Positions 11,101 through 27,125 of a DNA stretch of 64,000 nucleotides are shown here, one piece after another. Position 1 is the stretch's first letter, and each line of letters starts with the position of its first letter. The stretch is from Gemmatimonadales bacterium. Lineage in GTDB: Bacteria > Gemmatimonadota > Gemmatimonadetes > Gemmatimonadales > GWC2-71-9. The translations under genes and the position numbers were made by a program. The notes beneath the pieces are model-generated. The model was given only the letters and a program-made list of their open reading frames with translations. It was not told the origin of the DNA and made no database searches. The stretch is from positions 5,283 to 69,282 of the forward strand of contig DASWGV010000153.1 of assembly GCA_036393515.1 (NCBI GenBank). Reading direction: 5' to 3'.

Positions 11101-11319
11101 GGTTATGATTATACGGCTCGGATTGCCCTCAGCGTCTCAGGGGCCGGGGACGTAGTACGGGCTGCCCGGGAGCACCAAGGTTTCATCGCCGGCGAAACGC
11201 TGGCGCGGGAATTCGCCGCCGGCCGGGACCTGACCGGCGCTGACGTGACCGAAGTGGTCGAGATCGACGGGAGGCAGGTGCGCATCGCGGTCCGGCGACA
11301 CGAGGTCCCCGCCGGCTGA
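8110..11319 (+). CDS. ileS: isoleucine--tRNA ligase
   Basis: ORF 8110..11319, 1069 aa. HIGH-type [16 protein letters not shown]-type [10 protein letters not shown]1 editing insertion. The GTG start overlaps the punA stop. Confidence 0.97.
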
Positions 11320-11352
11320 CGAACTCCTCGCACGGGAACGCGGGAACGATCC

Positions 11353-11733
11353 ATGAACAAGAAGCAGATGTCTCACCTGGAAAAACGGTTGCTGGAAGAG
11401 CGGGCGCGCGTGCTGAAGGAGCTCGGGCATTACGACGAGTCGTTCAGCGCCACGCTCCAGGGCGCCGACGGTGACCTGTCCTCCTATTCCTTCCACATGG
11501 CCGATCAAGGCACCGACGCCATGGAACGAGAAAAGCAGTTTCTCTTCGCCTCGCAGGAGGGCCGCTACCTGTGGCACGTCAACGAAGCGCTGCGGCGCCT
11601 GTACATGACGCCGGAGAAATACGGCAAGTGTCAGGAATGTGGTGACGAAATAGGTTTTGAGCGGCTCGACGCGCTACCGCACGCGCGCCTGTGTATCAAG
11701 TGCAAGGCCAAAGAAGAAGATGAACGCCGCTAA
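11353..11733 (+). CDS. DksA/TraR family C4-type zinc-finger protein
   Basis: ORF 11353..11733, 126 aa. Coiled-coil N-terminus and CQECGDEIGFERLDALPHARLCIKC four-cysteine finger. Confidence 0.8.
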   Translation: MNKKQMSHLEKRLLEERARVLKELGHYDESFSATLQGADGDLSSYSFHMADQGTDAMEREKQFLFASQEGRYLWHVNEALRRLYMTPEKYGKCQECGDEIGFERLDALPHARLCIKCKAKEEDERR

Positions 11734-12241
11734 CGCTGCCGTGTTCTGGAGCGTTGCCACATCCGTGGTGGCGCTGGACTTTGTAACCAAACGGCTGGCG
11801 GTCGCCTTCTTGTCACACCGGTCGGTTCCCTTGTGGGGGGACTGGCTCAGCTTCCAACTGGTGTATAACCCGGGGGCCGCATTCGGCATTCACGTGGGGC
11901 AGTACTCCCGCTGGGTGTTCATGGTCCTGGCGATTCTCGCGCTGGTGGTGCTGGGCTCCATGGTGCGGCAGACCCCGCCCGACCAGCGGATTCGGCTGGT
12001 CGCGCTCGCGTTGGTATGCGGCGGGGCCGTGGGGAACCTGGTGGACCGGGTGCGCAGCGCCCGCGGTGTGGTGGATTTCGTTGACGTGTGGATTGGGCCG
12101 GTCCACTGGCCCACCTTCAACGTCGCGGACGCGGCGGTGTCGTGTGGTGCCGTGACGCTGGCCATTATCCTCTGGCTCGAGGGTCGGCGGGGAACCGCCG
12201 CCGCCCGGGAGCAGGCGGACGCCGCGGGCCTTTCCTCCTGA
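11720..12241 (+). CDS. lspA: lipoprotein signal peptidase II
   Basis: In-frame part of ORF 11657..12241. ATG 11720 (MNAANAAVFWSV) overlaps the dksA-like gene by 14 nt. Motifs VYNPGAAFG and WPTFNVADAAV plus four hydrophobic segments. Confidence 0.85.
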   Translation: MNAANAAVFWSVATSVVALDFVTKRLAVAFLSHRSVPLWGDWLSFQLVYNPGAAFGIHVGQYSRWVFMVLAILALVVLGSMVRQTPPDQRIRLVALALVCGGAVGNLVDRVRSARGVVDFVDVWIGPVHWPTFNVADAAVSCGAVTLAIILWLEGRRGTAAAREQADAAGLSS

Positions 12242-12278
12242 CGTTCACCGCCCCGGGGGCACGGTCCGCACGCTGCAC

Positions 12279-13262
12279 GTGAGCGTGCCGGTCACCGAGC
12301 GGCTCGATCGCTTCCTGGCGGACCAGTTGGACCTGTCGCGCACGGCGGTCGGTCGCCTGATCGCGCAGGGGATGGTCCTGGTCAACGGGACTTCCACCCG
12401 AGCCTCCCGACCACTCGCCCGTGGCGACCGCGTGGACGTAACGGTTCCGCCGGCCACGGCGGCGCGGACGCTGGCCCCCCACCCCATGGCCTTGAGCATC
12501 CGGTACGAAGACGAGTGGATGCTGGTCGTGGACAAGCCTGCCGGCTTGGTGGTGCATCCCGCACCCGGGCATTGGCACGACACCTTGGTGAATGCGCTGG
12601 TGGCGCGGGGCACGGGGCTGTCAGGCGGGGATGAGGGTCGGCCGGGGATCGTGCACCGCCTGGATAAAGACACCTCCGGCTTGCTGATCGTGGCCAAGAA
12701 CGATGCCGCCCACCGGATGCTGGCGCGCGCTCTGGCGGCGCGGCGGGTGGATCGGGTCTATGCGGCCCTGGTGTGGGGACACGTGTCCCGCCCCCTGGTG
12801 GTGGACGCGCCGCTGGCCCGCCACCCCGTGGATCGCCGGCGCATGGCCGTGCTCGCGGGCGGCCGGCCAGCCCGGTCCGCGGTGGAGCAGGTGGCGCGGT
12901 TCGACGCCTGTGACCTGGTGCGGGTCACGCTCGAGACCGGCCGCACTCATCAGGTCCGAGTGCACCTGGCCCACGTGGGGCACCCGGTGGTGGGCGACCC
13001 GGTGTACGGGGGAGGGGGGCATCGGGGGGTGAGCGGCGCGGGCCGGTCCGGCGCCGCTGCGCTGGAACGGTCGGTGCCCCGCCAGGCGCTCCACGCGGCC
13101 TGGCTGTCCCTGCCCCATCCGGCGTCGGGCGACCGGGTTGAGGTCCGCTCAGAGTGGCCCGCGGATCTTCGCCCGGCTCTGGCCGCCGCGAGCGGTGATC
13201 CGCGATTGGTTGATCGGTCCGAGGTGCTGGACTATCTTGGCTTCTTCGAAAGCCGTTCATGA
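12279..13262 (+). CDS. rluD: 23S rRNA pseudouridine synthase, RluD/RluA family
   Basis: ORF 12279..13262 with a GTG start. S4-like N-terminus (RLDRFLADQL), catalytic HRLDKDTSGLL, and TGRTHQVRVH. Confidence 0.9.
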   Translation: MSVPVTERLDRFLADQLDLSRTAVGRLIAQGMVLVNGTSTRASRPLARGDRVDVTVPPATAARTLAPHPMALSIRYEDEWMLVVDKPAGLVVHPAPGHWHDTLVNALVARGTGLSGGDEGRPGIVHRLDKDTSGLLIVAKNDAAHRMLARALAARRVDRVYAALVWGHVSRPLVVDAPLARHPVDRRRMAVLAGGRPARSAVEQVARFDACDLVRVTLETGRTHQVRVHLAHVGHPVVGDPVYGGGGHRGVSGAGRSGAAALERSVPRQALHAAWLSLPHPASGDRVEVRSEWPADLRPALAAASGDPRLVDRSEVLDYLGFFESRS

Positions 13263-13264
13263 CG

Positions 13265-13293
13265 GGCGGCTGGCGCGCGCGGCGCGCCCCGCC
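13265..13293 (+). terminator. GC-rich hairpin directly after rluD, with no U-tract
   Basis: GGCGCGC (13272-78) pairs with GCGCGCC (13282-88). Five more outer G:C pairs (13265-69 with 13289-93) follow across a 2-nt bulge. The hairpin starts 3 nt after the rluD stop. No T-run follows, so terminator function is uncertain. Confidence 0.25.
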
Positions 13294-13368
13294 GGTTGAC
13301 ATCCCTCCGGCGCCCCTGGGCTTCGCGTCGCTTGGGGCGCCTCACCGTGGCTAATCCGGCGCGCAACC

Positions 13369-16053
13369 GTGGCTGACGGACCCCTGGCGGTGCTGTCTGA
13401 GCGTGACCTGACTGCTCTGCGGTCGTTCGCGCGCCGGATCGACCCGGCGGACGCCGGGGCGCATAACAACCTCGGTGTTCTGTTTTTCCGCAAAGGTCTG
13501 CTGGAGGACGCCGTCGCGGCGTTCGAGCAAGCGCTTGCTTTGGATCCGCGGCTGGACGTGGCGCGGCGCAATCTGGACCTGGCGCAGCGGCAGAATGGGC
13601 GGCTGGACCGCCGGGTGGCGGATCTGCGCGAACGCCTCCGGGTTGCCCCCGACGAGGTCGAAACCCGGCGTGAGCTCGCGCGAGCTTATCTGGCGCTGGA
13701 CCAATACGACGCGACCATCGCGGAGTTGGAAGCCGTCCTGGCCCGAGCACCGGGCGACGCGGGAGCACCGGTTCAACTGGGCCTGGCCGAGAAAGGGCGC
13801 GGCAACCTGGCCGCGGCCACGGACTGGTTCCTGCGGGCGCGTGAGCGCGATCCCTCGAGCAGCGTGGTGCACGCCTGCCTGGGCGGCGTGTTGCACCAGC
13901 GAGGTCTGCTGCACGACGCGCTTGCGGCCCTCCAGCGCGCCGTGGAGCTCAACCCGGATCATGCGGATGCCCATCGGACGCTGGCCTTCGTCTTGGGCGA
14001 CCTGGGGCGCCATGAAGAGGCGCGGGGGGCGACACGGCGCGCCCTCCAGTTGAATCCCGCGTTCGCCCGAGAGGACTCGACCTTGTCGCTGGAGGGCGGC
14101 CCGGCGCTCCGGCGGCGTACGTCGCGCGTGAGCGGAATTCAGATTGCGCCAGGGGCCGCGCTGGCCCATTACAGCCTAGGCCTGACGTTCCGCCAACGGG
14201 GGCATCACGCCGAGGCCCTCAAAGAGTACCGACTCGCTCTGGATGAAGGCGAAGATCGGCACCTTGTGCTGCCGGCGATGGCGGAGGTGCACCTGTTGCG
14301 GCGCGACTTCGCGGCCGCGTTGGAGCTGTATGAACGGCTCGTGGCCGAGACCGTCGATTCCCCCAAACTCTGGAACGAGCGCGGCGTGGTACTGCACCAG
14401 TTGGGGCGGCTGGAGGATGCGGTGGTCTCCTACCGTCGCGCCACGGAAATCGCCCCGGCGTACGCGCTGGCGCGCAACAACCTCGCGGTGGCGCTCTCGG
14501 TGGGTGGTCAGTACGAGGAGGCCGTGGACCAGCTGCGCCGCGTCTTGGAGGACCAGCCGCGGTGGGTAACCGCGGCGGTGAATCTGGGGTTGCTCTTGTC
14601 CCGGGCCGGGCGCCCCCAGCTTGCCCTGCAGGTCTACCGCCAGGCGTCCGAGGCGGAGCCGCCGTCGGCCGCCGCGTGGAACGGCGTCGGATTGGTGTTG
14701 AATGAACTGGGGCGGACGCAGGACGCGCGCAACGCGTTTGCCCGCGCGGTTGAAGCCGATCCCGATTCCGCCGAGGCGCATTACAATCTGAGCTTCGCCC
14801 TCTCGACGCTGGGCGATTTCGACTCGGCGCTGCGGGAGGTGACGCGGGCGCAGCAACTGGACCCCTACTACGTGCCGCAGAAGTTCCAGCTCGCCATCGA
14901 CCTGCAGTTCGAGAACACCACCATCGCCGTCGCTCCGCAGATTTCGGGGGACGTGACGGCGGACTTGGCCCCCGGGCAGCTCACGCTGGACACCAGCGCC
15001 CTGGACGGCCTGTTCCGCGAGTTGGAGCGGCCCCGGGCACGGGCCAGCGGCGTCCGCCGGGAGGATACCTATGCGCTGGCGCGGGACTATCTCGCCAAGG
15101 GGATGCTTGAGCTGGCCAGCGCGGAAACGGCCCGGGCGGCGGCGGCGGGAGCGGATCCCGTGCCCGGGCACCTCTTGGCCGCGGAGATCTTCGTGCGGCG
15201 CGGCTTGCCGGGCGAGGCGCTGGAGCGGTTCCGCGCGGCGCTCGCCGCGGCGCCGACGCAGCGGGATGCCCGGCTCGGCGAAGTGCGGGCGCTCGCCGCG
15301 CTGGGGCGCGCGGCCGAAGGGCTGGAGAACGCGGAGGCCCTGGTCGGCGAGCAGCCGGAGGACGTGGATGCCATGCTGCTCCTGGGGACCTGCCGGTGGG
15401 CCGCTGGCAACCCGGCCGGGGCCCTCGATGCCCTCCGGCGGGCCCGCCAGCGCGCGCCCACGCGCGCCGACGTGCTGAAGCTGGAAGGCGAGATCGCGCT
15501 CGGCACCGGGAACCTCACCACGGCGCAGGAGGCGTTTGAGAACGCGCTGTCGCTGGATCCACGGTTTCTCCAGGTGCACGTGGCGCTGGGCCTGGTGCAC
15601 GAGGCGCGGGAGGATTGGCCGGCCGCGGAACGGTGCTATCGCAACGCCCTGGATGTCCACCCTTCCTACGCGCAGGCCGCCATTGCGCTGGCGGACCTCT
15701 TCCGGCGCACCGGGGCGCCCCGAGCCGCCGTCAACCTGCTGGTGGACGTGTTGACCGCCAATCCTGCCGACGTGGGGGCCCTCTTGGCGCTGGGCCGGTC
15801 CCTGCTGGACGACAATCGCACCGAGGCCGCGCTGGAATCCCTGCGACGGCTGGTCGCGTTCGATGACCGGAACGCCGCGGGCCATTTCTTCCTGGGAATG
15901 GGGCTGGCGCGGCTGCGACAGTACCGCGAAGCGGTCCGGGCGTGGGAACGCGTGGTGAGCATTGACCCCTCCGGGCACCTGGCCCACCAGGCCCGCCGAC
16001 ACGCTCGCACCGCGCTGGACCTGCAGCATATCTTCCGGGCCGACGCGGCATAG
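13369..16053 (+). CDS. large tetratricopeptide-repeat protein (894 aa)
   Basis: ORF 13369..16053 with a GTG start. Repeated 34-aa TPR pattern throughout, e.g. AHNNLGVLFFRKGLLEDAVAAFEQALALDPR and AEAHYNLSFALSTLGDFDSALREVTRAQQLDP. Confidence 0.8.
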   Translation: MADGPLAVLSERDLTALRSFARRIDPADAGAHNNLGVLFFRKGLLEDAVAAFEQALALDPRLDVARRNLDLAQRQNGRLDRRVADLRERLRVAPDEVETRRELARAYLALDQYDATIAELEAVLARAPGDAGAPVQLGLAEKGRGNLAAATDWFLRARERDPSSSVVHACLGGVLHQRGLLHDALAALQRAVELNPDHADAHRTLAFVLGDLGRHEEARGATRRALQLNPAFAREDSTLSLEGGPALRRRTSRVSGIQIAPGAALAHYSLGLTFRQRGHHAEALKEYRLALDEGEDRHLVLPAMAEVHLLRRDFAAALELYERLVAETVDSPKLWNERGVVLHQLGRLEDAVVSYRRATEIAPAYALARNNLAVALSVGGQYEEAVDQLRRVLEDQPRWVTAAVNLGLLLSRAGRPQLALQVYRQASEAEPPSAAAWNGVGLVLNELGRTQDARNAFARAVEADPDSAEAHYNLSFALSTLGDFDSALREVTRAQQLDPYYVPQKFQLAIDLQFENTTIAVAPQISGDVTADLAPGQLTLDTSALDGLFRELERPRARASGVRREDTYALARDYLAKGMLELASAETARAAAAGADPVPGHLLAAEIFVRRGLPGEALERFRAALAAAPTQRDARLGEVRALAALGRAAEGLENAEALVGEQPEDVDAMLLLGTCRWAAGNPAGALDALRRARQRAPTRADVLKLEGEIALGTGNLTTAQEAFENALSLDPRFLQVHVALGLVHEAREDWPAAERCYRNALDVHPSYAQAAIALADLFRRTGAPRAAVNLLVDVLTANPADVGALLALGRSLLDDNRTEAALESLRRLVAFDDRNAAGHFFLGMGLARLRQYREAVRAWERVVSIDPSGHLAHQARRHARTALDLQHIFRADAA

Positions 16054-16057
16054 CGCC

Positions 16058-17212
16058 ATGGCGATCGAGGGCCCGCTCAAGGAACTCGGCATTCACGACG
16101 TCTTTCAGCTCCTCGACGTGAGTCGGAAGACCGGCGTGCTACGCATCGCGTCCCGGCTGCGCCAGAATCAGGGAACGGTCTACTTCGAGCAGGGCGCGGT
16201 CATCTACGCGGAGATCCAGAGCAATCCCCACCGGCTCGGCGAGCTGCTGGTCCGCGCGGGCACCATCACGCCCGCCGACCTGAGCCGCGCCGTGGATGTG
16301 CAACGCCAGGGAGATGGCCGGCGCATGGGCGAGATCCTGGTGGACATCGGCGCGGTCAGCGCGGCTGACCTGGAGCATCACGTCGGGGCCCAGGTGGAGG
16401 AGGTCGTCTTCGAGCTGATGAGCTGGCAGGAGGGGTACTTCTCGTTTCAGGAGGGTCTGCCGCCGGACATCGTCACCACCGGCGTGGTCCGCATCCCCAC
16501 CGAGGCGTTGCTCATGGAGGCCGCGCGCCGGATTGACGAGTGGTCTCGTATCGAGGCCCGGATTCCCCACCTCGGACTGGTGCCGCGCTTCGCCGCGCCG
16601 GACGAAGCCGGGCACGGACAACTGGAGCTGCTGGCGGAGGAGTGGGAGGTTCTGGCGGCGATTGACGGGCAGGCGTCGGTGCGGGATATCGCGTCGGTCT
16701 TGGAGCGACCTGAGTTCGACGTGGCCAAGACGGTCTTTGGACTGGCCAGCGCCGGCGTCATCGCCCTGGAGGACGAGCTGGCGCACACCTTGGCGGCTTC
16801 CGGGGCTTCGGCGGATCTGCAGGAGCTCCTGGAGCGGGCGGAGCAGGCGTTGGCCACCCGGGACTTCGCGGCGGCGCGCGCGGCCGCCGAGGCGGCGGTG
16901 GCGTCCGATCCCCACGAAGCGGCGGCGCATCTCATGCTGGGCCGGGCGTGCGTGGCGCAGCGGCGCGACAGCGAGGCGGAGGAGCACCTGCGGCGCGCGC
17001 TCCGGTTCGATCCGCTCCTCGCCGACGCGCAGCGGTTGCTGGGGGACGCGCTGGCCCGGCAGGGGCGCTTCGGCGAGGCTGTGGAATGGTGGCAGCGATG
17101 GCTCGGGCTCGGTGCCGCCGTGCCCGAGCTGGCCGCCGAGGTGGACCACGTGCAGGAGGCGGTGCACGCGGCTCAGACGCTGGACCTGCTCCTCAAAGTC
17201 CCCCATGGCTGA
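16058..17212 (+). CDS. PATAN/DUF4388-domain protein with C-terminal TPR region
   Basis: In-frame part of ORF 15962..17212. ATG 16058 lies 4 nt after the preceding stop. N-terminus GPLKELGIHDVFQLLDVSRKTGVLRI...TVYFEQGAVIYAE...WQEGYFSF, with a helical insert of two LGE-LLV-G-I-DL type repeats. TPR-like C-terminus. Confidence 0.75.
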   Translation: MAIEGPLKELGIHDVFQLLDVSRKTGVLRIASRLRQNQGTVYFEQGAVIYAEIQSNPHRLGELLVRAGTITPADLSRAVDVQRQGDGRRMGEILVDIGAVSAADLEHHVGAQVEEVVFELMSWQEGYFSFQEGLPPDIVTTGVVRIPTEALLMEAARRIDEWSRIEARIPHLGLVPRFAAPDEAGHGQLELLAEEWEVLAAIDGQASVRDIASVLERPEFDVAKTVFGLASAGVIALEDELAHTLAASGASADLQELLERAEQALATRDFAAARAAAEAAVASDPHEAAAHLMLGRACVAQRRDSEAEEHLRRALRFDPLLADAQRLLGDALARQGRFGEAVEWWQRWLGLGAAVPELAAEVDHVQEAVHAAQTLDLLLKVPHG

Positions 17213-18077
17213 GACCCTGCAGGCGCTCCAGGCGGAACTCCAGCGGGATGCGGCCAGTCTGGCATTCCTGCAGTTGGCGGAGGGGCTCCGCTTGCGCGGC
17301 GACTTGGACGGCGCGGCCCGGGTGGCCCTGGCCGGCCTCGAGCATCACCCCAATCTGGCGGATGCCCACGACGTCTTCGGCCGCATTCTCACGGACGCCG
17401 GGGACTTCGAGCGCGCCGCCGACGAGTGGAGCGTCGCTCTGGCGGTGGACCCGCGGCATGGTGGGGCGCACAAGGGTCTGGGGTTCCTGGGGTATCGGCG
17501 CGGCGACCTCGACGGCGCGCTGGATCACCTGGAGCTGGCGTTGGCTGCGGATCCCACGGATCGCAGCGTGGTCCAGGCCCTGCACGTGGTGCGGTCGGCC
17601 GCACAAGCGGCGGCCGCGGAGCCGCCGCCCGCCGAGCCGGAGACGCGAGTGCCCGGGGCCGCGGCCGGTCCCGCGCCGGCGGGCCCTCCTGCCGTCGAGC
17701 CGCGGGACCAGTTGCCGGGAACCGTGTTCGCCGGGTTCGAGGGCGGCGAACGGGGAATGCTGCTGCTCGACCCGCGCGGGCGAACGCTGGCCGGCGGTCT
17801 GCGGGATGGGAACGGCAGGGACGTGGCCGACGAGGTGGCCGCCTACCTCGCCGGCGTGTCCCAGGAGGCCGAGCGGACGGCCCGGCTTCTGGAGCTCGGT
17901 TCCTGGCGTTGGATCGCGGCGGAAGCGGAGGGTGGGACGCTCCATCTGTCCCGCCCCGCGGACGACGCCTTGTTGCTCCTGGCGCGGGACCGCAGTGTGC
18001 CCGCCGGCCGCATCGGGATCCTGGCGGCGCGGGCGGCAGACGTGGCGCGGCGCTGGTTGGAGGCGCAGCGGATATGA
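17205..18077 (+). CDS. TPR N-terminus fused to a Roadblock/LC7-like C-terminal domain
   Basis: In-frame part of ORF 16533..18077. ATG 17205 overlaps the upstream stop by 8 nt. TPR repeats (ADAHDVFGRILTDAGDFERAADEWSVALAVDPRH), an Ala/Pro linker, then ERGMLLLDPRGRTLAGG...ADEVAAYLAGV...GGTLHLSRPADDALLLLARD, which follows the Roadblock pattern by eye. Confidence 0.65.
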   Translation: MAETLQALQAELQRDAASLAFLQLAEGLRLRGDLDGAARVALAGLEHHPNLADAHDVFGRILTDAGDFERAADEWSVALAVDPRHGGAHKGLGFLGYRRGDLDGALDHLELALAADPTDRSVVQALHVVRSAAQAAAAEPPPAEPETRVPGAAAGPAPAGPPAVEPRDQLPGTVFAGFEGGERGMLLLDPRGRTLAGGLRDGNGRDVADEVAAYLAGVSQEAERTARLLELGSWRWIAAEAEGGTLHLSRPADDALLLLARDRSVPAGRIGILAARAADVARRWLEAQRI

Positions 18078-18424
18078 AGCCGGGATTCCGCTATGTGCTG
18101 GATGCCATCACGCGGATCCGCGGCGTGAACGGCGCCATCCTCGTGGCCGGGGAGGACGGTCTCATTGTGGCGGAGTCGCTCATGGAAGGCGTGCGCGGCA
18201 ACGCGGTCGCCGCGCTGGCCGCCAGTCTGTATCAGCGGTTCCGTCGCGCCACGGAATTCGCGGGTGTTCGGCGGCCGGAATTCCTGCACCTCCAGGCGGC
18301 GGAGGGTTCGCTGCTGGTTGTTCCCGCGCCGAACGATGTTCTGGTCGTGGCGGTCGCCGCGGGCGATATCAATGTGGGGCTGGCGCGGTTGGAGATGATT
18401 CGGGCGTCTGAGGCGATTGCGTGA
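18074..18424 (+). CDS. Roadblock/LC7 domain protein (116 aa)
   Basis: In-frame part of ORF 17426..18424. ATG 18074 overlaps the upstream stop (ATGA). VNGAILVAGEDGLIVAES...AVAALAASLYQ...GSLLVVPAPNDVLVVAVAAGDINVGLARLEM matches the Roadblock/MglB fold pattern. Confidence 0.7.
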   Translation: MKPGFRYVLDAITRIRGVNGAILVAGEDGLIVAESLMEGVRGNAVAALAASLYQRFRRATEFAGVRRPEFLHLQAAEGSLLVVPAPNDVLVVAVAAGDINVGLARLEMIRASEAIA

Positions 18425-18894
18425 CGACCACCCGAGCGGTCGATCCCTGGACGCTAGAGCCGCTCCGCCGGTTTGTGGCCGAGGCGGGCGCCCGGCTGGC
18501 GTTGCTGACCACGCCGGCCGGGCAGGTGATCGCGCAGCACGGTTTCACGCGGGCCGTGGATGTCATGGCGGCGGCCGCGTTGGGCGCGGCCATCGCGGCG
18601 TCCACGGCCGAGATCAATCGGATGCTCGCCGAGCCCACCTTCCGGGCGTTGGCCCACCAGGGAGTGCGCCACGGCATCTATCTCGCGAGCTTCGCCACGC
18701 CACGCGGACCCATGCTGGCCCTCGTGGTCTATGGGTTGGATTCGTCGATCGGGTTGGTGCAGTTGTTCTTCGAAGACCTCGTGCGGGACCTTGCGGCGGC
18801 CGCCCCCCTTCCGGAGGAGCGGCCCAAGACGGTGCTGGCCGCGGACTTCGAACGGGATCTCAACCAGAGCCTCGCCGCGCTCTTCGGACGGTAA
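18421..18894 (+). CDS. mglB: MglB-like Roadblock/LC7 protein (putative GAP partner of MglA)
   Basis: ORF 18421..18894. The GTG start overlaps the upstream stop by 4 nt. ARLALLTTPAGQVIAQHG...AAAALGAAIAAST...IYLASFATPRGPMLALVVYGLDSSIGLVQLFFEDL resembles the MglB core. It sits directly upstream of mglA, as in the mglBA operon. Confidence 0.65.
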   Translation: MTTTRAVDPWTLEPLRRFVAEAGARLALLTTPAGQVIAQHGFTRAVDVMAAAALGAAIAASTAEINRMLAEPTFRALAHQGVRHGIYLASFATPRGPMLALVVYGLDSSIGLVQLFFEDLVRDLAAAAPLPEERPKTVLAADFERDLNQSLAALFGR

Positions 18895-18897
18895 CGG

Positions 18898-19497
18898 ATG
18901 TCCCTGGTCAACTTTACCACCCGCGAGATCACGTGCAAGCTCGTCTACTACGGGCCGGGCCGATCCGGCAAGACCACGAATCTGCAGTACATCTACGGTC
19001 GCGTTCCTGAGGACCGGCGGGGGCGAATGGTCTCGCTGGCGACGCAGACCGACCGGACGCTGTTCTTCGATTTCCTGCCCATTGAGCTGGGCGCCATTTC
19101 CGGATTCAAGACCCGTTTTCAGCTCTACACCGTACCCGGCCAGGTGTACTACAACGCCACCCGTAAGCTCGTGCTCCAGGGTGCCGACGGGTTGGTGTTC
19201 GTCGCCGACAGCCAGGCGCGCCAGCTGGACGAGAACATCGAGAGCATGCAGAACCTGCACGCCAACCTGCTCGAGCAGGGCATGGATATTCGGACGCTGC
19301 CCGCCGTGGTGCAATACAACAAGCAGGATCTTCCGGCGGATCTCGTCCTCACGCCGGCGGAGTTGGACGACGCGATCAACTTCCGGAACTGGCCCAGTTT
19401 TCCCGCGGACGCCTTGAAGGGCCAGGGGGTGTTCGAGACCTTGCGCGCGCTCTCGGAGCGGGTGCTGCGGCGACTGTCCGAGGCGGAGCCGAGCTGA
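18898..19497 (+). CDS. mglA: MglA-type Ras-like small GTPase
   Basis: ORF 18898..19497, 199 aa. Collinear with my memory of Myxococcus MglA: KLVYYGPGRSGKTTNLQYIY (P-loop), TDRTLFFDFLP (intrinsic Arg), LYTVPGQ (Thr in place of Asp in DxxGQ), QYNKQDL (NKxD). Confidence 0.9.
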   Translation: MSLVNFTTREITCKLVYYGPGRSGKTTNLQYIYGRVPEDRRGRMVSLATQTDRTLFFDFLPIELGAISGFKTRFQLYTVPGQVYYNATRKLVLQGADGLVFVADSQARQLDENIESMQNLHANLLEQGMDIRTLPAVVQYNKQDLPADLVLTPAELDDAINFRNWPSFPADALKGQGVFETLRALSERVLRRLSEAEPS

Positions 19498-19500
19498 CGC

Positions 19501-21456
19501 GTGGATCTGAATCGGCAATGCCGCTTCGATACGTTCGTGGTCGGGCCGAGCAACCAGATGGCGGCCCAGGCGGCGCGCACCGTGGCGCAAAGTCCGGGCA
19601 CGGCGTATAACCCGCTGTTTCTCTACGGTCCGACGGGTCTGGGCAAGACCCACCTCTTGATGGCCATCGGGCATCACGCCCGCGAGGTCGCCGGCTCCAT
19701 CGCCGTTGAGTACCTGACGCTCGAGGAGCTCGTGGAAGCGCTCCACGCCGCGGTCGCCGCCGGGCAAAGTGACGCGTTCCGCCGGCGCTTCGCGGCGGTG
19801 GACGTGCTGCTGGTGGACGACGTGCAGTTCCTCACCCATCGGCGCGAGGTCCAGGCCGAGTTGCTACGGCTGGTGGGTGAGCTCCAGGGGGCGGGGAAAC
19901 AGATCGTCCTGAGCAGCGATCGCCCCCCGGCGGAGATCGAGAACCTGGATGAACGGTTGATCCACGGGTTCCAGGGGGGCCTGATCGTGGATATCGGGCG
20001 TCCGGAGATCGCCACGCGGCTGGCGATTCTGGAGCGGCGCGCCCGGGACCGGGGCGTCCAGTTCGCGGCGGGTGTGCTAGAAGCCGCGGCGGGTCCCGAC
20101 GTGGCCAATGTGCGCGAGCTGCTCGGCCTCCTCAATCGCCTGGTGGCATTCCAGGCCGTGAGTGACGAGCCGCTGAAAGCCGAGTCGGTGGCGGCGCTGC
20201 TGGGCGTGTCCGCCGTGGCGCCCGCGGCAGCCGTGGCGTCAACGCCCGCCCCAGGGGCGGCCGCCGCCGCCCCGCCGGATGAGTTTTCGTCCTTCTTGTC
20301 CGACATCACCAGCACGGTGACGCAGCAGGTTGAGGCGTGGCGCCGCCGTCTTGGTGAAACCATCCTGCGATGGGAGGGGGAGGGATATCGCACGACGCGC
20401 CTGGAGGAATTCCTCAAACGCGACACGCCCGTCGGGGCCGAAGCGGCTATCCGGAAGTTCGAGGCGGACGTCGAGCGCCTCCGTGTTCTTGAGGCCGAGA
20501 TTATTCGACTCGATCCCCGGGCGGTCGGGGACGCCGTGTTCCGCAATCCGGACCGGCTCGGTGACGCGGAGTCGCTGGTGCAGCGCGCGCGCGACGGGCT
20601 CGCGCCGTTGCCGGGACCGTCACCGGTCTGGACCTTCGATGAGTATCTCCCCGGCGAAGTCAACAAGGTGGCGCTGCGGGCGGCACGCGCCGTTGCAGAG
20701 TCGCCAGGCACGCGGTTCAACCCGCTGGTGCTGGTGGGCCCAGCCGGCGTGGGGAAGACGCATCTCCTCCATGCGATCGGCAACGCGCTCGCCGCCTCTG
20801 GCGCGGTGATCGCCTGCTTGTCGGCCAGCGACTTCGCCGATGACTTGCTGGAAGCGCACGCCGCGGACCGCACCGAGGCCTGGCGCACCCGCCAGCGCCG
20901 CGCTGTGGCGTTGCTGCTGGACGACGTGCACCTCGTCGCCCGGCGCCCAGAGGTCGAGGAGGAGCTGTATCACTTGCTCAATCACATCCAGGCGCAGAAG
21001 GGACAGTTGGTGTTCACCATCAACGCGCTTCCCGGAGAAGTGGCGGGACTGGACCCACGGGTAGTGGCGCGTCTGGACGAGGGATTGCCGGTCACCGTGG
21101 CGCCCCCCGACCGTGAGCTCAGGCTGGCCATTGTGCGCCGGCAGATCGAGATCCGGGTCGGGACACCGGACCTGGATCTGGTGGAATACCTCGGCGCGCG
21201 CCCCGCCGAGTCCGTCCGCGTGGTCCTTGCCCTGGTGCAGCGGGTGCTGAGCGCCGCCGAGAGCCAGGGCGCAGTCCCCAGCGCGTCCCTGGCGCGCGAA
21301 CTGCTGGAGGGGTCCATGCCCCGCCAGCGACGGCCCTCGGTGGGGATGCGTACCAGCGGCATCATCGTCTCTCCGACGGCCTCGGTGCGGAGCCGGGAGA
21401 AGTTCGTCTGGTTCTGGCCCGACGCCGCGGACCGCATTGTGGAGGAGTTGGACTGA
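19501..21456 (+). CDS. tandem DnaA-like AAA+ ATPase (two DnaA domain-III modules, no DnaA DNA-binding domain)
   Basis: ORF 19501..21456, 651 aa, GTG start 3 nt after the mglA stop. Module 1: FDTFVVGPSN, NPLFLYGPTGLGKTHLL, LLVDDVQF, IVLSSDR, NVRELLG. Ala/Pro-rich and helical linker. Module 2: FDEYLPGEVN, NPLVLVGPAGVGKTHLL, LLLDDVHL, PRVVARLDEGL. I see no helix-turn-helix domain IV at the C-terminus. Confidence 0.85.
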   Translation: MDLNRQCRFDTFVVGPSNQMAAQAARTVAQSPGTAYNPLFLYGPTGLGKTHLLMAIGHHAREVAGSIAVEYLTLEELVEALHAAVAAGQSDAFRRRFAAVDVLLVDDVQFLTHRREVQAELLRLVGELQGAGKQIVLSSDRPPAEIENLDERLIHGFQGGLIVDIGRPEIATRLAILERRARDRGVQFAAGVLEAAAGPDVANVRELLGLLNRLVAFQAVSDEPLKAESVAALLGVSAVAPAAAVASTPAPGAAAAAPPDEFSSFLSDITSTVTQQVEAWRRRLGETILRWEGEGYRTTRLEEFLKRDTPVGAEAAIRKFEADVERLRVLEAEIIRLDPRAVGDAVFRNPDRLGDAESLVQRARDGLAPLPGPSPVWTFDEYLPGEVNKVALRAARAVAESPGTRFNPLVLVGPAGVGKTHLLHAIGNALAASGAVIACLSASDFADDLLEAHAADRTEAWRTRQRRAVALLLDDVHLVARRPEVEEELYHLLNHIQAQKGQLVFTINALPGEVAGLDPRVVARLDEGLPVTVAPPDRELRLAIVRRQIEIRVGTPDLDLVEYLGARPAESVRVVLALVQRVLSAAESQGAVPSASLARELLEGSMPRQRRPSVGMRTSGIIVSPTASVRSREKFVWFWPDAADRIVEELD

Positions 21457-23069
21457 TGGCGATCCGGGGAAGCTTGAAGGAGGCGTCGCTCGCCGACGTG
21501 CTCCAGCTCCTGGCCCTGGGCCAGAAAACCGGCTGCCTCTCCGTGATCGATCGCAACAACATCGCCCACCTGTACTTCGAACGCGGCCGGATCTGCTACG
21601 CCTCCATTGTGAACCGCCGGGACCGCCTGGGTGATATCCTGGTGAAGAACGGACGTATCTCGCAGAACCAGCTGGAGCGAGCCATCGCCCGGCAGGAGCA
21701 GGAGCGGGAGAAACGGCTGGGAGAGCTGCTGATTGACGAAGGCGCTATCTCGCGCAGTGACCTGGAGCATTACATGCGCGTGCAGATTCAGGAGGCGGTG
21801 TATTTCCTGTTCACCTGGACCCGGGGCACGTTCAATTTCGAGACGGACCTGCGGCCCGAGGGCCAGGACGTCCTGGTCTCGATCAATCCCGAGTCATTGC
21901 TGCTGGAAGGCGCCCGCCGGGTTGACGAGTGGAGCCTGATCGAGAAGAAGATCCCCAGTTTCGATCTGGTGTTCAGCGTGGACGCGGACCGTCTGGCCGG
22001 TTCGGACGTGGAGCTCACCGAAACGCAGCGACGCATTGTGCCCCTCATCGACGGCCAGCGGGACGTCCAGCACGTGATCGAGGAATCCGGACTCGGCGAG
22101 TTCGAGGTGGGCAAGGCATTGTTCGGGCTGATCACGGCCGGATTCGCCCACCGCATCGGACGCAGCCACGCGGTGGCGGCCGACGGGACCGATGCCCGGG
22201 TGGAGGAGCATCGCAACCTGGGTCTGGCGTTCTACCGGACCGGGATGTTGGACGAAGCCAGCCGGGAATTCCGGCGGGTGGCCGAGCTCCGACCCACGGA
22301 CGGCAGCGCCTACTTCTACCTGGGGTTGGTGGCGCTGAAACAGGCGCGCTGGGAGGAGGCCGCGGAGCTGCTATCCCAGGCCGCGGAACGCGGCGGTGAG
22401 CGGCCCGCCGTGCTGCATAATCTGGCGTATGCGCTCGAGCGCACCGGACGCCTGGATGAAGCGGAGGCCATGTTCGGTGATGCCGCCGCGCGGGCTCGGC
22501 ACGACGCGCGGCACCTGCTGGGGTGGGGCATCGCCGCGCTCCAGCGGGGGGACCCGCAAGTCGCGGCCGGCCGCCTGGACCGCGCCCGCGAAGTCTGGGG
22601 CAACGAGTTGCCGGCCATCTGGTATTGGGCGCGCGGCCTGGCCGCCGCGGCGGATGGGGAATTCCCCGAGGCGGAGCGCCTCACGGGTGAGGGCCTGGAG
22701 CGCTTCCCCCACCACGCCATCCTCCAGAACAACCTCGCCGCGCTGGTGGAGATCGGGGGCGATCTGGAGCGAGCCCAGGAGTTGATTGACGCGGCGCTGG
22801 CGGATGATCCATCGGTCCCGCAGCTGTCCAAGAACTTCGGAGACTTGCTCTACCGGTCGGGCCGGTATGATGATGCGTGGGAGGCCTACAAGCGGGCCGT
22901 AAAGCTGCAGCCGGACTTGGGAGACGACGTGTACTTCAAACTGGGTAACATCGCGTACAAGCGGATGGACCGGGACATGGCGGGAATGTTGTGGCGCCAG
23001 GCGCTGGAGCTGAACCCCGGACACGAGCTGGCCCGCACCAACCTGGAGACGCTGAATGCGGTGGCCTGA
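21456..23069 (+). CDS. PATAN/DUF4388-domain protein with long TPR C-terminus (paralog of 16058..17212)
   Basis: ORF 21456..23069. The ATG shares one nt with the upstream TGA. N-terminus GSLKEASLADVLQLLALGQKTGCLSV...HLYFERGRICYAS...LGDILVKNGRISQNQLERAI...LGELLIDEGAISRSDLEHY...WTRGTFNFE, followed by TPR repeats. Confidence 0.75.
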   Translation: MAIRGSLKEASLADVLQLLALGQKTGCLSVIDRNNIAHLYFERGRICYASIVNRRDRLGDILVKNGRISQNQLERAIARQEQEREKRLGELLIDEGAISRSDLEHYMRVQIQEAVYFLFTWTRGTFNFETDLRPEGQDVLVSINPESLLLEGARRVDEWSLIEKKIPSFDLVFSVDADRLAGSDVELTETQRRIVPLIDGQRDVQHVIEESGLGEFEVGKALFGLITAGFAHRIGRSHAVAADGTDARVEEHRNLGLAFYRTGMLDEASREFRRVAELRPTDGSAYFYLGLVALKQARWEEAAELLSQAAERGGERPAVLHNLAYALERTGRLDEAEAMFGDAAARARHDARHLLGWGIAALQRGDPQVAAGRLDRAREVWGNELPAIWYWARGLAAAADGEFPEAERLTGEGLERFPHHAILQNNLAALVEIGGDLERAQELIDAALADDPSVPQLSKNFGDLLYRSGRYDDAWEAYKRAVKLQPDLGDDVYFKLGNIAYKRMDRDMAGMLWRQALELNPGHELARTNLETLNAVA

Positions 23070-23105
23070 GCGCGCGACGCGCGGCGGGGGCCGGAGCCCG
23101 GGGGC

Positions 23106-23969
23106 ATGAGCGATTCCATCGCCGCGGCCTTGCGCGCCTCGTATGCCGAGATCACCAAGAAGCTGGACCTGCCGCACACGCCGGAGAGCCGGGAAGCCGT
23201 CAAGCGGGACATCATCGCGTTGTTCAAGACGGTGGACCAGGCCATCATGGATCTCGGAGCGTTGAAAGAAGACATTCGCACCCTGGTGGACCGGTACAAG
23301 CAGCTCTCGCAAGGCGAGACCGGGACGCAGGCGCCGCAGTTCACCGGAGCGGTCCCCGTCCTCCACGCCGATCACATTGGCGCTTCCACGTTCATTCAGA
23401 AGGGCTGGAGCCTGATCTCGCTGGGTGACTATCCGGGCGCCATCCAGGCCCTGTCCAAGGCCCTTACCCTCTCCCCGGGAGATTCCCAGGCGGAATCGCT
23501 CCTGGGGTGGGCCCAGATGTTGGCCGAGGATTATGACAGCGCGCTGGCCACCCTCCAGAAGGTGCTCACCAAGGAGCCGGCCAACTCGCTGGCCCGGATC
23601 AATCTGGGGTACGTGTGTCTCAAGAAGCGGCTGTTTGGTGAAGCCATTGAGCACCTTTCCAAGGCGATCCGTCTGGACAACGACAAGAAAGCGACGCTGT
23701 ACGCCCATTACTACCTGGGCCTGGTGTACTTCGAGCGTGAGATGTTCGAGGATGCCGAGACGTTCTTCCGCAAGACCCTGCAATTGGGCCCGAACCTGAT
23801 CGAAGCGTACTACGAGCTGGGTCGCTCCTTCTGGTTCGCCGGAGATCCGGAGGCGGCCAAGCAGGCGTGGGAGGACGGCTTCAAGGCCAACAAATTCAAT
23901 CCGTGGGGCAAACGCTGCAAGGAAACGCTCGATCTCGTCGCCCAGGGCCACGAGCCGCCCCGCTCCTGA
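23106..23969 (+). CDS. TPR-repeat protein (287 aa) with helical N-terminal region
   Basis: ORF 23106..23969 with TPR units such as GDYPGAIQALSKALTLSPGD, EDYDSALATLQKVLTKEPAN and ATLYAHYYLGLVYFEREMFEDAETFFRKTLQLGPN. Confidence 0.75.
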   Translation: MSDSIAAALRASYAEITKKLDLPHTPESREAVKRDIIALFKTVDQAIMDLGALKEDIRTLVDRYKQLSQGETGTQAPQFTGAVPVLHADHIGASTFIQKGWSLISLGDYPGAIQALSKALTLSPGDSQAESLLGWAQMLAEDYDSALATLQKVLTKEPANSLARINLGYVCLKKRLFGEAIEHLSKAIRLDNDKKATLYAHYYLGLVYFEREMFEDAETFFRKTLQLGPNLIEAYYELGRSFWFAGDPEAAKQAWEDGFKANKFNPWGKRCKETLDLVAQGHEPPRS

Positions 23970-24823
23970 CGCTGGTCCTGGTTGGCTCCGTGCCCCAGGG
24001 GCCAGCGGTGGTGCAGGTGGGCGGCGCCGCGGCCGTGTACTGGCGGGGCCACGAGGGGCTCGCGACCGCGCTGGCCGAGGCCGCCGACCGCGCGGGGCCG
24101 TGGCCCGGGCTTCCCGACTCGATCCGTCCCGCCGTCCGCATCCTGATCGCCGGGTCCCAGACTCAGTTCGATTCGCTGGTGGCGGGACGCCTGCCGTCGT
24201 GGGGAGCCGGGGCCGCCTTTCCGGGTATGAGAACGGTAGTGGTGCTGGCGGGGCGGGATCCCTTTCGAGTCCTCCAGCATGAGTTGGCGCACGTCGCGCT
24301 GCACGCCGTGGTGCGTGGCCCGCCGCTCTGGCTAGACGAGGGGTACGCGGCCCGGGCCGCCGGCGAGTGGGATCGCCTCGCGGCGCTGCGAGTGAACTGG
24401 ATCGTGGCCCTCGGTCGGGTACCGCCGCTGCGGGGCCTGGCCGTCGAGCTGCGGGGTGGGGCGGCGCAGGCGGAGGTGGGCTACGCATTGGCCACCAGCG
24501 CCGTGCTCTTGCTGGAACGGATGGGTGGGGAACGCGGCTTGGCCCCGTTGCTGGCGGCGTTGGCGGCCACGGGCGATCTGGATCAGGCGCTCCGACAAAC
24601 TCACGGCGTGAGCCTTGATCAGTTCGAGCGGCGGTGGCGGGAAGATCTGCGCCGGCGCTTTGGATGGCTTGCGCTGGCGGGCTCGTTCACGGCCTTGTGG
24701 ACGGCAGTCCTGGCGGTGGTCGGGAGCGTATGGTTGCGCCGCCGGCGGCGTGACGCCGTCAGGCGGGCGGCGCTCGAGATTGGGTGGCCCGTTCCCGCGG
24801 ATGAACCCGGGGCAAGTGCTTGA
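23867..24823 (+). CDS. peptidase MA-like (HExxH ... EGxA) protein with C-terminal TM anchor; start uncertain
   Basis: ORF 23867..24823 with HELAHVALHAVVRGPPLWLDEGYA (gluzincin-type) and a C-terminal helix WLALAGSFTALWTAVLAVVGSVWL. ATG 23867 overlaps the upstream gene by 103 nt. In-frame GTG 23903 or GTG 23990 are alternative starts. RSRRPGPRAAPLLTLVLVGSV looks signal-peptide-like, which favours a start at 23867 or 23903. Confidence 0.6.
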   Translation: MGGRLQGQQIQSVGQTLQGNARSRRPGPRAAPLLTLVLVGSVPQGPAVVQVGGAAAVYWRGHEGLATALAEAADRAGPWPGLPDSIRPAVRILIAGSQTQFDSLVAGRLPSWGAGAAFPGMRTVVVLAGRDPFRVLQHELAHVALHAVVRGPPLWLDEGYAARAAGEWDRLAALRVNWIVALGRVPPLRGLAVELRGGAAQAEVGYALATSAVLLLERMGGERGLAPLLAALAATGDLDQALRQTHGVSLDQFERRWREDLRRRFGWLALAGSFTALWTAVLAVVGSVWLRRRRRDAVRRAALEIGWPVPADEPGASA

Positions 24824-24848
24824 CGGACATGGACCTGGCAGTTAGCCT
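24820..24848 (+). promoter_or_regulatory. sigma70-like promoter candidate TTGACG-N17-TAGCCT
   Basis: TTGACG at 24820-25, an exact 17-nt spacer, then TAGCCT at 24843-48. ATG 24857 lies 8 nt after the -10 and has no Shine-Dalgarno. It could equally drive tRNA-Val. Confidence 0.25.
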
Positions 24849-24856
24849 GAAACCTT

Positions 24857-25042
24857 ATGCCGGAAAAAGAGATGTTGTCCGGGCGCTTGCGATTTGGACG
24901 AGTCAATGCTGGGTTGCTAGGCGCGGCGGTCATCTCGCTTGGTGTGGGGTATTACCTGTTGGCTCAAGGGTCAACCGGGCTTGCCCCCATACTCCTGGTG
25001 CTCGGGTACTGCGTGCTGTTTCCGCTGGGGTTGGCACTGTAG
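24857..25042 (+). CDS. small hydrophobic protein, two predicted TM helices (61 aa), hypothetical
   Basis: ORF 24857..25042: AGLLGAAVISLGVGYYLLA and LAPILLVLGYCVLFPLGLAL. Codon third positions are visibly less GC-biased than in neighbouring genes, so coding status is uncertain. Confidence 0.4.
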   Translation: MPEKEMLSGRLRFGRVNAGLLGAAVISLGVGYYLLAQGSTGLAPILLVLGYCVLFPLGLAL

Positions 25043-25048
25043 CGTTCC

Positions 25049-25123
25049 GGGCGAATAGCTCAGTTGGCCTAGAGCGCCTGCCTTACACGCAGGAAGTCGG
25101 GGGTTCGAATCCCTCTTCGCCCA
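25049..25123 (+). tRNA. tRNA-Val (anticodon TAC)
   Basis: Hand-folded 75-nt cloverleaf. Acceptor GGGCGAA/TTCGCCC, D stem GCTC/GAGC, anticodon stem CCTGC/GCAGG with loop CTTACAC, T arm GGGGG-TTCGAAT-CCCTC, discriminator A. CCA is not encoded. Confidence 0.95.
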
Positions 25124-25194
25124 TGCGGTGGCCGGATCGCGAAGGGGGCGGCTCCGGTGCAGGACGTGACGGTCACAAACTGGAGGGACGGACG

Positions 25195-26964: not shown

Positions 26965-26984
26965 GACGAGACGGCGCTTGAACC

Positions 26985-27023: not shown

Positions 27024-27025
27024 CA

Positions 27026-27099: not shown

Positions 27100-27125
27100 T
27101 CTTGGTCCGAACGCGACACTGCAGC

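Follow-up and report, generated by a model that had tools for sequence, protein, structure and literature searches.

Positions 13369 to 24823 of a 64,000-nucleotide stretch of a Gemmatimonadales genome (assembly GCA_036393515.1, contig DASWGV010000153.1; the whole stretch is referred to here as the window) hold ten consecutive open reading frames (ORFs) on the + strand, numbered g1 to g10 in order, at the core of which lie an MglB-like Roadblock protein and an MglA GTPase. A sequence-only reading of the window had described these ORFs as a single MglA supercluster and had proposed a role in cell polarity, division, or the cell cycle rather than in motility. Comparison with related genomes indicates that the cluster is the che-less form of a supercluster that is ancestral to the phylum Gemmatimonadota and in which an MglA/MglB switch is placed amid a chemotaxis operon. 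As the same genes are found inside a chemotaxis operon in most relatives, the cluster probably controls cell polarity or motility, and not DNA replication. The real evidence that these genes represent one unit is the conservation of their content and order in at least approximately 30 loci across the phylum; co-directionality and packing alone are weak evidence for a unit, since almost all genes of the window share the + strand and tight junctions occur elsewhere too (e.g., in the dcw cluster).

Genes and proteins of the cluster

All ten ORFs were found where they had been proposed to lie, and the core junctions reported for them were reproduced (g1/g2, +4; g2/g3, -8; g3/g4, -4; g4/g5, -4; g5/g6, +3; g6/g7, +3; and g7/g8, -1 nucleotides [nt]); two junctions omitted from that description are a 36-nt gap between g8 and g9 and an overlap of 67 or 103 nt between g9 and g10, given a g10 start at the GTG at 23903 or at 23867, respectively. 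Pfam and NCBIfam profile searches, which were run on all ten proteins with bit scores read against family cut-offs, confirmed the proposed inventory, which comprises two PATAN/DUF4388-TPR proteins, two further proteins with TPRs, Roadblock modules in g4 and g5 along with a probable, divergent third one in g3, MglA, a tandem DnaA-type ATPase, and an MA-type peptidase.

Structure matches and family hits likewise bore out the assignment of an MglB-like Roadblock protein and an MglA GTPase as the core. Judged by its sequence, g6 (18898..19497; 199 amino acids [aa]) is a bona fide MglA (a Ras-like small GTPase) that matches Myxococcus xanthus MglA (5ymx) over residues 1-195 with an E value of 9.4e-74 and that is 60-91% identical across 29 loci. 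Its P-loop (GPGRSGKTT) and the segments TDRTLFFDF and YTVPGQ align residue for residue with M. xanthus MglA; YTVPGQ has Thr where Asp is usual in the DxxGQ motif, and the catalytic Gln and the switch-I Arg, both of which reportedly have described roles in MglA, are kept. Thr at this position (Thr78) is a feature of MglA (PMC3000849). Directly upstream of mglA, g5 (18421..18894) encodes a 157-aa MglB-like Roadblock protein with a conserved C-terminal extension (Robl_LC7, 26.7 bits; cut-off, 23), which matches the MglB structures of M. xanthus (6h5b; E 3e-6) and Thermus thermophilus (3t1r; E 2e-5) as well as the MglB family NF052242, the latter with an E value of 4.6e-10 and a score below the family cut-off. 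MglB is the GTPase-activating protein (GAP) of MglA, and extra Roadblock proteins modulate MglB.

Two such extra Roadblock modules are encoded immediately upstream of g5. The first, g3 (17205..18077; 290 aa), which shares 8 nt with g2 and 4 nt with g4, consists of an N-terminal TPR region, a Pro/Ala-rich linker, and a probable, divergent C-terminal Roadblock domain that scores just under the 23-bit Robl_LC7 cut-off (21.7 bits); the second, g4 (18074..18424), is a 116-aa stand-alone Roadblock/LC7 protein (Robl_LC7, 36.2 bits). Among solved structures, the best relative of g4 is an archaeal Robl_LC7 protein (7f8m; E 3e-5) and no MglC or MglB chain was matched, such that g4 is not detectably MglC-like by sequence. 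In profile-profile comparisons (hhalign), the g3 orthologues matched the g4 profile with 87% probability (E 3.7e-6; 93 columns) and the g5 profile with 4% probability. Because the genes g3 and g4 overlap and their Roadblock domains are closest to each other, it is suggested that these two domains form a heterodimer.

Two further proteins consist largely of TPRs. The first gene of the run, g1 (13369..16053), encodes an 894-aa, all-TPR cytoplasmic protein (TPR families, up to 240 bits), orthologues of which (36-78% identical) occupy the same position in 23 loci. By analogy with the long TPR proteins SgmX, which has 14 TPRs and is recruited by MglA-GTP (PMC11580455), and Bd2492, the TPR partner of MglA in a Bdellovibrio hub that is also joined by a receptor for cyclic di-GMP (c-di-GMP) (PMC3983030), g1 is a candidate MglA partner, i.e., a putative scaffold or effector. 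The 287-aa protein g9 (23106..23969) has an approximately 90-aa, non-TPR helical N-terminus followed by TPRs (TPR_1, 93 bits). It is confined to Gemmatimonadales and Gemmatimonadaceae, where it is 54-87% identical, and is absent from a Longimicrobiales locus (L086) and from two loci of deep lineages (L087 and L088).

With regard to the PATAN proteins, g2 (16058..17212; 384 aa) and g8 (21456..23069; 537 aa) score 119.4 and 126.4 bits, respectively, against DUF4388 (PF14332; cut-off, 25 bits) and end in a C-terminal TPR region, which in g8 is long. The g8 start overlaps the g7 stop by 1 nt, and g8 was found in 27 loci. In both proteins the PATAN match is split around an insertion at approximately residues 55-112, and this "alpha-helical insertion" of PATAN is a c-di-GMP module of the MshEN type (residues 59-112 in g2 and 57-110 in g8); the c-di-GMP motif family NF053729 (cut-off, 38 bits) was matched with 49.9 bits by g2 and 54.4 bits by g8. 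MshEN has been defined by tandem 24-residue motifs of the form RLGxx(L/V/I)(L/V/I)xxG(L/V/I)(L/V/I)xxxxLxxxLxxQ (PMC5013675). Judged from the aligned segments (strict regular expressions being too rigid), both motifs are present in g2 (RLGELLVRAGTITPADLSRAVDVQ and RMGEILVDIGAVSAADLEHHVGAQ) as well as in g8 and are kept in orthologues; PLG is the usual start of the first motif among g2 orthologues, as the relaxed published motif permits (PMC5013675). In addition, residues 54-114 of g8 align to the c-di-GMP-binding region of Vibrio cholerae MshE (5htl, residues 6-65; E 5e-6) and to the N-termini of PilF/PilB. We thus predict that g2 and g8 are c-di-GMP-binding PATAN-TPR proteins, which share the two tandem motifs with V. 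cholerae MshE and T. thermophilus PilF, but carry them inside PATAN instead of N-terminally in a secretion or pilus ATPase, with a spacer of 6 rather than 5 residues and, in g2 orthologues, mostly with the PLG start.

The gene between mglA and g8, g7 (19501..21456), encodes a 651-aa tandem AAA+ ATPase of the DnaA domain III type (two Bac_DnaA matches, 301.8 bits in total). The protein is laid out as a first module, D1 (residues 3-234), a disordered linker (237-258), a helical domain (approximately 261-366), a second module, D2 (approximately 375-605), and a disordered tail, after which it ends in a conserved [ST]xEKvvWxWP..DRivEEl peptide (referred to here as WxWP-acidic) that is kept in Longimicrobiales (L086) and also in L087 and L088, which represent deep lineages. 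Two DnaA domain III modules are seen in the AlphaFold model (predicted local distance difference test [pLDDT] score, 82), and D1 matches domain III of Bacillus subtilis DnaA (8bv3) with a template modelling (TM) score of 0.91 at 42% identity. D1 and D2 are 36% identical to each other and are 42-46% and 32-39% identical, respectively, to true DnaA; the family-specific helical domain (approximately 105 residues), when modelled alone (pLDDT, 83), gave no fold match in the PDB. In the family alignment the Walker A and B motifs are invariant in both halves, and the box VII arginine, which we take to be Arg285 in Escherichia coli DnaA numbering, is invariant in D2. In D1 (residues 156-158) the clade of the window (i.e., the window, P0003, P0006, P0010, and P0051) has Gly in place of this arginine, which every other family member in the alignment keeps. 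A link between this loss of the D1 arginine finger and the loss of che genes was considered and rejected, as locus L085 combines the D1 Gly with a full che set.

Identification of g7 as a DnaA replication initiator was also rejected, since Pfam gave no hit in g7 for DnaA domain I or domain IV and a true Gemmatimonadetes DnaA with the canonical four domains (L062) has both. Neither is g7 an Hda or HdaA protein; it is a tandem rather than a single module, it scores 159.5 against the Hda models (cut-off, 194.8), and by inspection it has no N-terminal clamp motif, its N-terminus opening directly with the domain III consensus LNxxxxFDxFVxG. Like the initiator-clade AAA+ proteins DnaA, Hda, and DnaC, g7 has the DnaA domain III fold (in both halves), Walker A/B and sensor motifs, and, in D2, the box VII arginine; it differs from them in carrying two AAA+ modules in one chain, split by the helical domain, in having the C-terminal peptide in place at the end of a chain without domains I and IV or a clamp-binding motif, in the position of its gene between mglA and a PATAN gene, and, in the clade of the window, in the D1 Gly. 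The cluster defines a new protein family, i.e., a tandem DnaA-domain-III ATPase without a DNA-binding domain. In JGI/IMG annotations, homologues of g7 bear the name "chromosomal replication initiator protein DnaA", and with its summed score (422.8) g7 exceeds the TIGR00362 cut-off (343.9) even though its matches span model positions 103-335 only; together these constitute a misannotation trap that can create false second dnaA genes in Gemmatimonadota. From its sequence, the C-terminal peptide looks like a short linear docking motif and, as five proteins of the cluster contain TPRs, a TPR domain is the obvious candidate for its receptor.

Finally, g10 (23867..24823; start uncertain, as noted above) encodes an MA-clan HExxH metallopeptidase (Peptidase_MA_2, 38.8 bits; cut-off, 32.4) with a signal-like hydrophobic N-terminal segment, a C-terminal transmembrane (TM) helix, and an Arg-rich cytoplasmic tail, from which its catalytic domain is predicted to be probably periplasmic or otherwise extracytoplasmic. 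The signal-like N-terminus of relatives requires one of the two GTG starts that overlap g9. An alignment of 12 orthologues showed conservation of RHELAHLAL...EGYA, the C-terminal TM helix, and RRRRD..ALDEGW, and g10 is kept beside g8 or g9 in 23 loci, that of L087 among them. Directly after g10 and beyond the cluster as previously delimited, a 61-aa ORF (24857..25039, + strand) with two predicted TM segments (MPEKEMLSGRLRFGRVNAGLLGAAVISLGVGYYLLAQGSTGLAPILLVLGYCVLFPLGLAL) was detected by tblastn, with 38-72% identity, at the same position in 21 loci and is called as a gene in L001, L002, and L087; the L002 copy had no NCBIfam family hit. This small membrane protein is possibly an eleventh member of the cluster.

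Conservation and chemotaxis genes in relatives

Related loci were collected by gene-neighbourhood look-ups and by a genome scan with the g7 alignment (with L004-L024 as the useful loci), and were mapped by tblastn; most of what the scan returned were true dnaA loci of other phyla (L025-L083). At least approximately 30 loci, from Gemmatimonadales, Gemmatimonadaceae, Longimicrobiales, and deeper lineages, share the cluster genes, their order, and the chromosomal slot (rluD...mraW). The order g1-g2-g3-g4-g5-g6-g7-g8 is invariant from Gemmatimonadales to Longimicrobiales (L086) and the deeper L088, always downstream of rluD. Thus, the genes are linked rather than scattered, and the claim of one conserved operon-like unit centred on MglB/MglA is supported by phylum-wide content and order. 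For g7, identity across the mapped loci is 28-78%; full-length homologues are abundant (55-99% identity, 100% coverage), and the tandem architecture forms approximately 50 clusters (at 50% identity) among 1.8 billion cluster representatives, the named ones including Longimicrobiales. All g7 members with an organism name are from Gemmatimonadota, with the exception of the label of L014.

That locus (CAXMUQ010000073.1), labelled "uncultured Acidimicrobiia bacterium", carries a complete supercluster of the Gemmatimonadota type, che and MglA genes included, at 42-76% identity, and the label is probably a binning error in a metagenome-assembled genome.

The most reduced version was found in the very divergent L087 (9470-15096 on a 3.6-Mb contig), which retains orthologues of MglB (hhalign, 96.5%), of the tandem ATPase g7 (here 729 aa), of the PATAN-TPR protein g8, and of the peptidase g10, as well as the small ORF; there is no mglA, g1-g4, or che gene at this locus, and the dcw cluster does not follow.

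In 17-22 related loci the cluster is interleaved with a complete che set of the Thermotoga/Bacillus type, arranged as rluD-cheW-cheY-cheA-cheC/X-[g1...g8]-cheR-cheD-cheB-cheW-cheW-[g9-g10-61-aa ORF]...mraW. For example, L002 has 20 consecutive genes with no gap above 50 nt and with ten overlapping junctions, and its che genes directly abut the cluster genes (cheC/g1, +4; g8/cheR, -1; and cheW/g9, -16 nt). The set is flagellar-type with CheC and CheD, both of which best match Thermotogales/Thermotoga models with scores below curated cut-offs. CheY of the relatives matches the flagellar-type CheY of Thermotoga maritima (1tmy; E 4e-51) and is the most conserved supercluster protein, at 82-93% identity between lineages, compared to 67-88% for MglA and approximately 50% for the rest (loci with CheY compared: L002, L004-L009, L013-L023, L085, and L086). 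The che-containing loci encode three CheW paralogues and no methyl-accepting chemotaxis protein (MCP), and no flagellar gene lies within 10 kb of any related locus examined. Neither the window nor L084, the relative nearest to it (77% identity in g7), has che genes at either position, L001 keeps only the upstream che half, L085 (g7 66% identical) has the full set, and L088 is che-less. Since relatives interleave these genes with che genes and the window does not, the window cluster represents the conserved non-che core in a derived form stripped of che genes.

This arrangement bears on whether the cluster serves flagellar chemotaxis, e.g., by positioning chemoreceptor arrays or by setting flagellar number or placement, with a GTPase and an ATPase that would act in the manner of FlhF/FlhG or ParC/PpfA. 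The placement of the genes between cheC and cheR of an F1-like che operon in most lineages, the extreme conservation of a T. maritima-like CheY, and the presence of three CheW paralogues at a locus without an MCP gene are all in keeping with such an accessory function. We nevertheless consider it quite improbable, as the genes remain intact where che genes are gone from the locus (the window, L084, L087, and L088) and flagellar genes are missing from the 10 kb around every locus examined; to our knowledge, no MglA, PATAN, or MshEN protein acts on flagella.

The interleaved che genes also raise the question of whether the cluster represents two units, i.e., a cytoplasmic MglA module (g1-g8) and a separate envelope-protease unit comprising g9, g10, the 61-aa protein, and perhaps the periplasmic TPR protein encoded downstream. 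Five che genes can separate g8 from g9, g9 is missing in L086, L087, and L088, g10 has a predicted extracytoplasmic catalytic domain, and the only sizeable gaps are those between g8 and g9 (36 nt) and, in relatives, between g9 and g10 (approximately 50 nt). However, g10 directly follows g8 in L086 and L088 and is retained in the reduced L087, g9 overlaps the preceding, last cheW in Gemmatimonadales and Gemmatimonadaceae relatives, and g10 appears to overlap g9 in the window, and we therefore regard a division into two units as possible, but doubtful.

Genomic setting

The cluster lies, as had been described, between divIVA (6621-7289) and the dcw cluster, which begins with mraW at 27160. Directly upstream are ileS, dksA/traR, lspA, and rluD, and downstream are tRNA-Val, a TPR protein gene, tRNA-Asp, and then mraW-ftsI-murE-murF-mraY-murD-ftsW...ftsA-ftsZ. 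The reported absence of pil, glt, and agl genes from the window held true among the approximately 40 ORFs scanned. A scan for promoters and terminators gave counts no better than those in shuffled sequence and was uninformative for this GC-rich genome without a sigma-70 consensus; an Rfam search in E-value mode (11000-28500) yielded two tRNAs only, and hence no riboswitch upstream of g1.

These neighbours are relevant to the proposal that the cluster is a cell-cycle, division, or budding polarity module, in which MglA and g7 would mark a pole or division site or would modulate initiation in the manner of Hda, independently of motility. The cluster always follows yggS-divIVA...ileS-lspA-rluD and mostly precedes mraW/ftsI, versions without che genes persist intact, D1 of g7 is 42-46% identical to true DnaA domain III, and Gemmatimonas has been described as partly budding, which needs polarity cues. 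The first of these points loses force because the housekeeping neighbours represent weak evidence in a region that is syntenic throughout; adjacency to dcw, which had been offered as functional evidence, reflects shared synteny and has been lost in L087 at least. The argument from the DnaA-like ATPase to replication is not supported either, as g7 is without DnaA domains I and IV, and by inspection without an Hda-type N-terminal clamp-binding motif, in a phylum that has canonical four-domain DnaA; none of the parts with which DnaA contacts DNA or the replisome is present in g7. Moreover, most lineages interleave the cluster with che genes via overlapping junctions, which points to behaviour-linked signalling. 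For the same reason the absence of motility genes from the window is not a sound basis for a role outside motility, given that relatives hold a complete che set with overlapping junctions and a flagellar-type CheY. Thus, from the original proposal of a division or cell-cycle role rather than motility, the part concerning polarity is plausible and the exclusion of motility is not supported; a role in replication or division is possible, with nothing tested here arguing for it, and the cell-cycle module as a whole appears unlikely to us.

An origin of the cluster as an anti-phage defence or other mobile island, assembled from AAA+/STAND-like, TPR, and protease parts, is effectively refuted. It could appeal to the weak, generic matches that PADLOC AAA/TPR models and nSTAND Pfam families gave in g7 and the TPR proteins; however, these are P-loop or TPR matches only and identify no specific PADLOC system, the cluster occupies a fixed chromosomal slot and is vertically inherited across the phylum, its composition is host-like (GC content of 0.66-0.72, compared to 0.64-0.73 for the window), and neither an integrase nor repeats were seen.

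A number of further observations were made in the window. Cumulative GC skew climbs steadily over 1-64000, with nearly all genes encoded on the + strand, in keeping with a single long leading-strand run of core genes (ftsH, folP, ileS, dcw, recG, aspS, alr, and comEC). Between folP and yggS-divIVA, positions 3628-6060 encode an 810-aa homologue of TMEM260-like protein O-mannosyltransferases (142 bits). The 2.4-kb gap that had been noted between the cluster and dcw is filled by tRNA-Val(TAC) (25049-25123), the TPR gene, and tRNA-Asp(GTC) (27026-27099). A mechanical 714-aa ORF at 24820-26964 runs through tRNA-Val, a read-through given away by GGSNPSSP in its translation; the real gene inside it starts after tRNA-Val and encodes a shorter TPR protein with a signal-like N-terminus. 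In the segment 27100-28089, mraW directly follows tRNA-Asp, which leaves no room for an mraZ at the head of the dcw cluster, and mraZ is not called in the relatives L001, L002, L084, and L085 either. An FtsI/PBP3-type transpeptidase (28370-30298) has a PASTA domain at its C-terminus (31.8 bits), a feature that its L001 and L084 orthologues share and that is unusual for a diderm lineage.

Proposed polarity control and comparison with known systems

Our general reading of the cluster, which we favour with modest confidence, is that it encodes an MglA GTPase polarity module that integrates c-di-GMP signals, that was ancestrally wired to CheY, and in which g7 is a new component. In such a module MglA would cycle between its GTP- and GDP-bound states, with MglB (g5) acting as GAP and the g3/g4 Roadblock pair as co-regulator. 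MglA-GTP would be read by the TPR scaffolds g1 and g9 and by the PATAN-MshEN-TPR adaptors g2 and g8, through which c-di-GMP input would enter. The tandem ATPase g7 would serve as an ATP-dependent assembly or scaffold component, tethered to a TPR protein via its C-terminal peptide, rather than as a replication initiator, and the membrane peptidase g10 may tie the complex to the envelope. The output would be spatial (polar) control of a motility-related or envelope machine, for which a flagellum, a pilus, or a structure connected with growth or division are candidates. The ancestral input would be phosphorylated CheY (CheY-P) from the che genes of the same operon, lost from the locus in the lineage of the window, and the PATAN-TPR proteins together with a separate CheY could be viewed as a split version of the PatA-type regulators, in which PATAN is joined to a receiver (PATAN-REC). 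The window has no che gene, and che genes are interleaved with the cluster in 17-22 related loci, where a chemosensory pathway may feed the GTPase module as in systems of the Frz-MglA type.

Several points weigh against this reading. The roles proposed for g7, its tail, and g10 are pure inference, no partner of the RomR/RomX type is encoded in the cluster, and, among the ORFs scanned, the window holds no che, pilus, flagellar, or gliding gene. All characterised MglA systems that we know of act on type IV pili or gliding, yet the che set here is flagellar-type. Che-less versions persist intact in at least three lineages (the window with L084, L088, and L087), and the module hence does not need che genes in cis. 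In addition, L087, without mglA at the locus, questions MglA as the obligatory centre.

The best characterised relative is the M. xanthus polarity module (MglA, MglB, MglC, RomR/RomX, and RomY, with Frz input and the TPR effector SgmX), with which the cluster shares an MglA orthologue next to an MglB-like Roadblock protein, additional Roadblock paralogues (g4 and, probably, g3), large TPR proteins, and, in relatives, a possible chemosensory input. It differs from that module in that the che genes of relatives are interleaved with it and, including CheC and CheD, belong to the Thermotoga/Bacillus type instead of being Frz-like, in that RomR/RomX are missing, the extra Roadblock proteins are not detectably MglC-like, and no pilus or gliding genes are nearby, and in the addition of two PATAN-MshEN-TPR proteins, the tandem DnaA-type AAA+ protein, and a membrane peptidase. 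The hub of MglA, the TPR protein Bd2492, RomR, and CdgA in Bdellovibrio bacteriovorus (PMC3983030) likewise brings together MglA, a TPR partner, and a c-di-GMP receptor, there at one pole; by contrast, it is without MglB and without an AAA+ partner, its receptor is a degenerate GGDEF protein rather than a PATAN-MshEN protein, and its genes are dispersed.

PATAN genes near mglA/mglB have been noted before (PMC4316618), and the pilus motor is a target of PATAN-REC regulators that work downstream of chemosensory systems (bioRxiv 10.1101/2021.06.11.447907). As in the cyanobacterial PatA-type regulators (Tax/Pix), PATAN here is found with a chemosensory cluster and a separate CheY, and PATAN is tied there to spatial motor control; however, in the cluster PATAN is fused to TPRs instead of a receiver, contains MshEN motifs in its insertion, and is encoded with MglA/MglB. 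Actinobacterial conservons (CvnA-D/Mfp) resemble the cluster as conserved operons that encode an MglA-family GTPase, a Roadblock protein, and accessory signalling proteins. An assignment of the cluster to the conservons was rejected, as none of the ten proteins had a HATPase (CvnA-like) or DUF742 (CvnC) hit; in addition, its MglA belongs to the M. xanthus-type group, and Gemmatimonadetes have been listed among the Group 1 MglA phyla, with only "occasional" PATAN neighbourhoods, whereas conservons fall into Group 2 (PMC4316618). The literature searched contained no description of the composite, in agreement with the sequence-only reading, and nothing that links MglA or MglB with a DnaA-like ATPase.

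A more specific proposal, which we regard as tentative and rather unlikely as it stands, is that g7, the tandem AAA+ protein, partners MglB/MglA as a dedicated nucleotide switch, such that the two would form a coupled GTPase-ATPase polarity system that is phylum-ancestral and hard-wired into a flagellar-type che operon. If true, an AAA+ module of the initiator clade would no longer serve DNA but would have been taken over for building or resetting a polar protein assembly, and MglA-type polarity control would also operate in flagellated, budding bacteria.

Modules that combine MglA/MglB with PATAN and TPR partners and with chemosensory input are of a kind already known. What is new in the composition of the present one is that it is physically fused with a flagellar-type che operon, that it includes the tandem DnaA-type AAA+ protein and the membrane peptidase, and that its PATAN domains carry an MshEN insertion. 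MglA/MglB polarity has been characterised in myxobacteria, Bdellovibrio, and Thermus, always together with type IV pili or gliding. Throughout the phylum Gemmatimonadota, by contrast, a far larger MglA module is retained in a fixed operon, where most lineages encode CheA-CheY as the only visible, putative input. The supercluster thus represents a compact genetic system for asking how chemosensory and c-di-GMP signals become a GTPase state, and the che-less lineages, together with the one that is without mglA at the locus, provide natural experiments on how its parts depend on each other.

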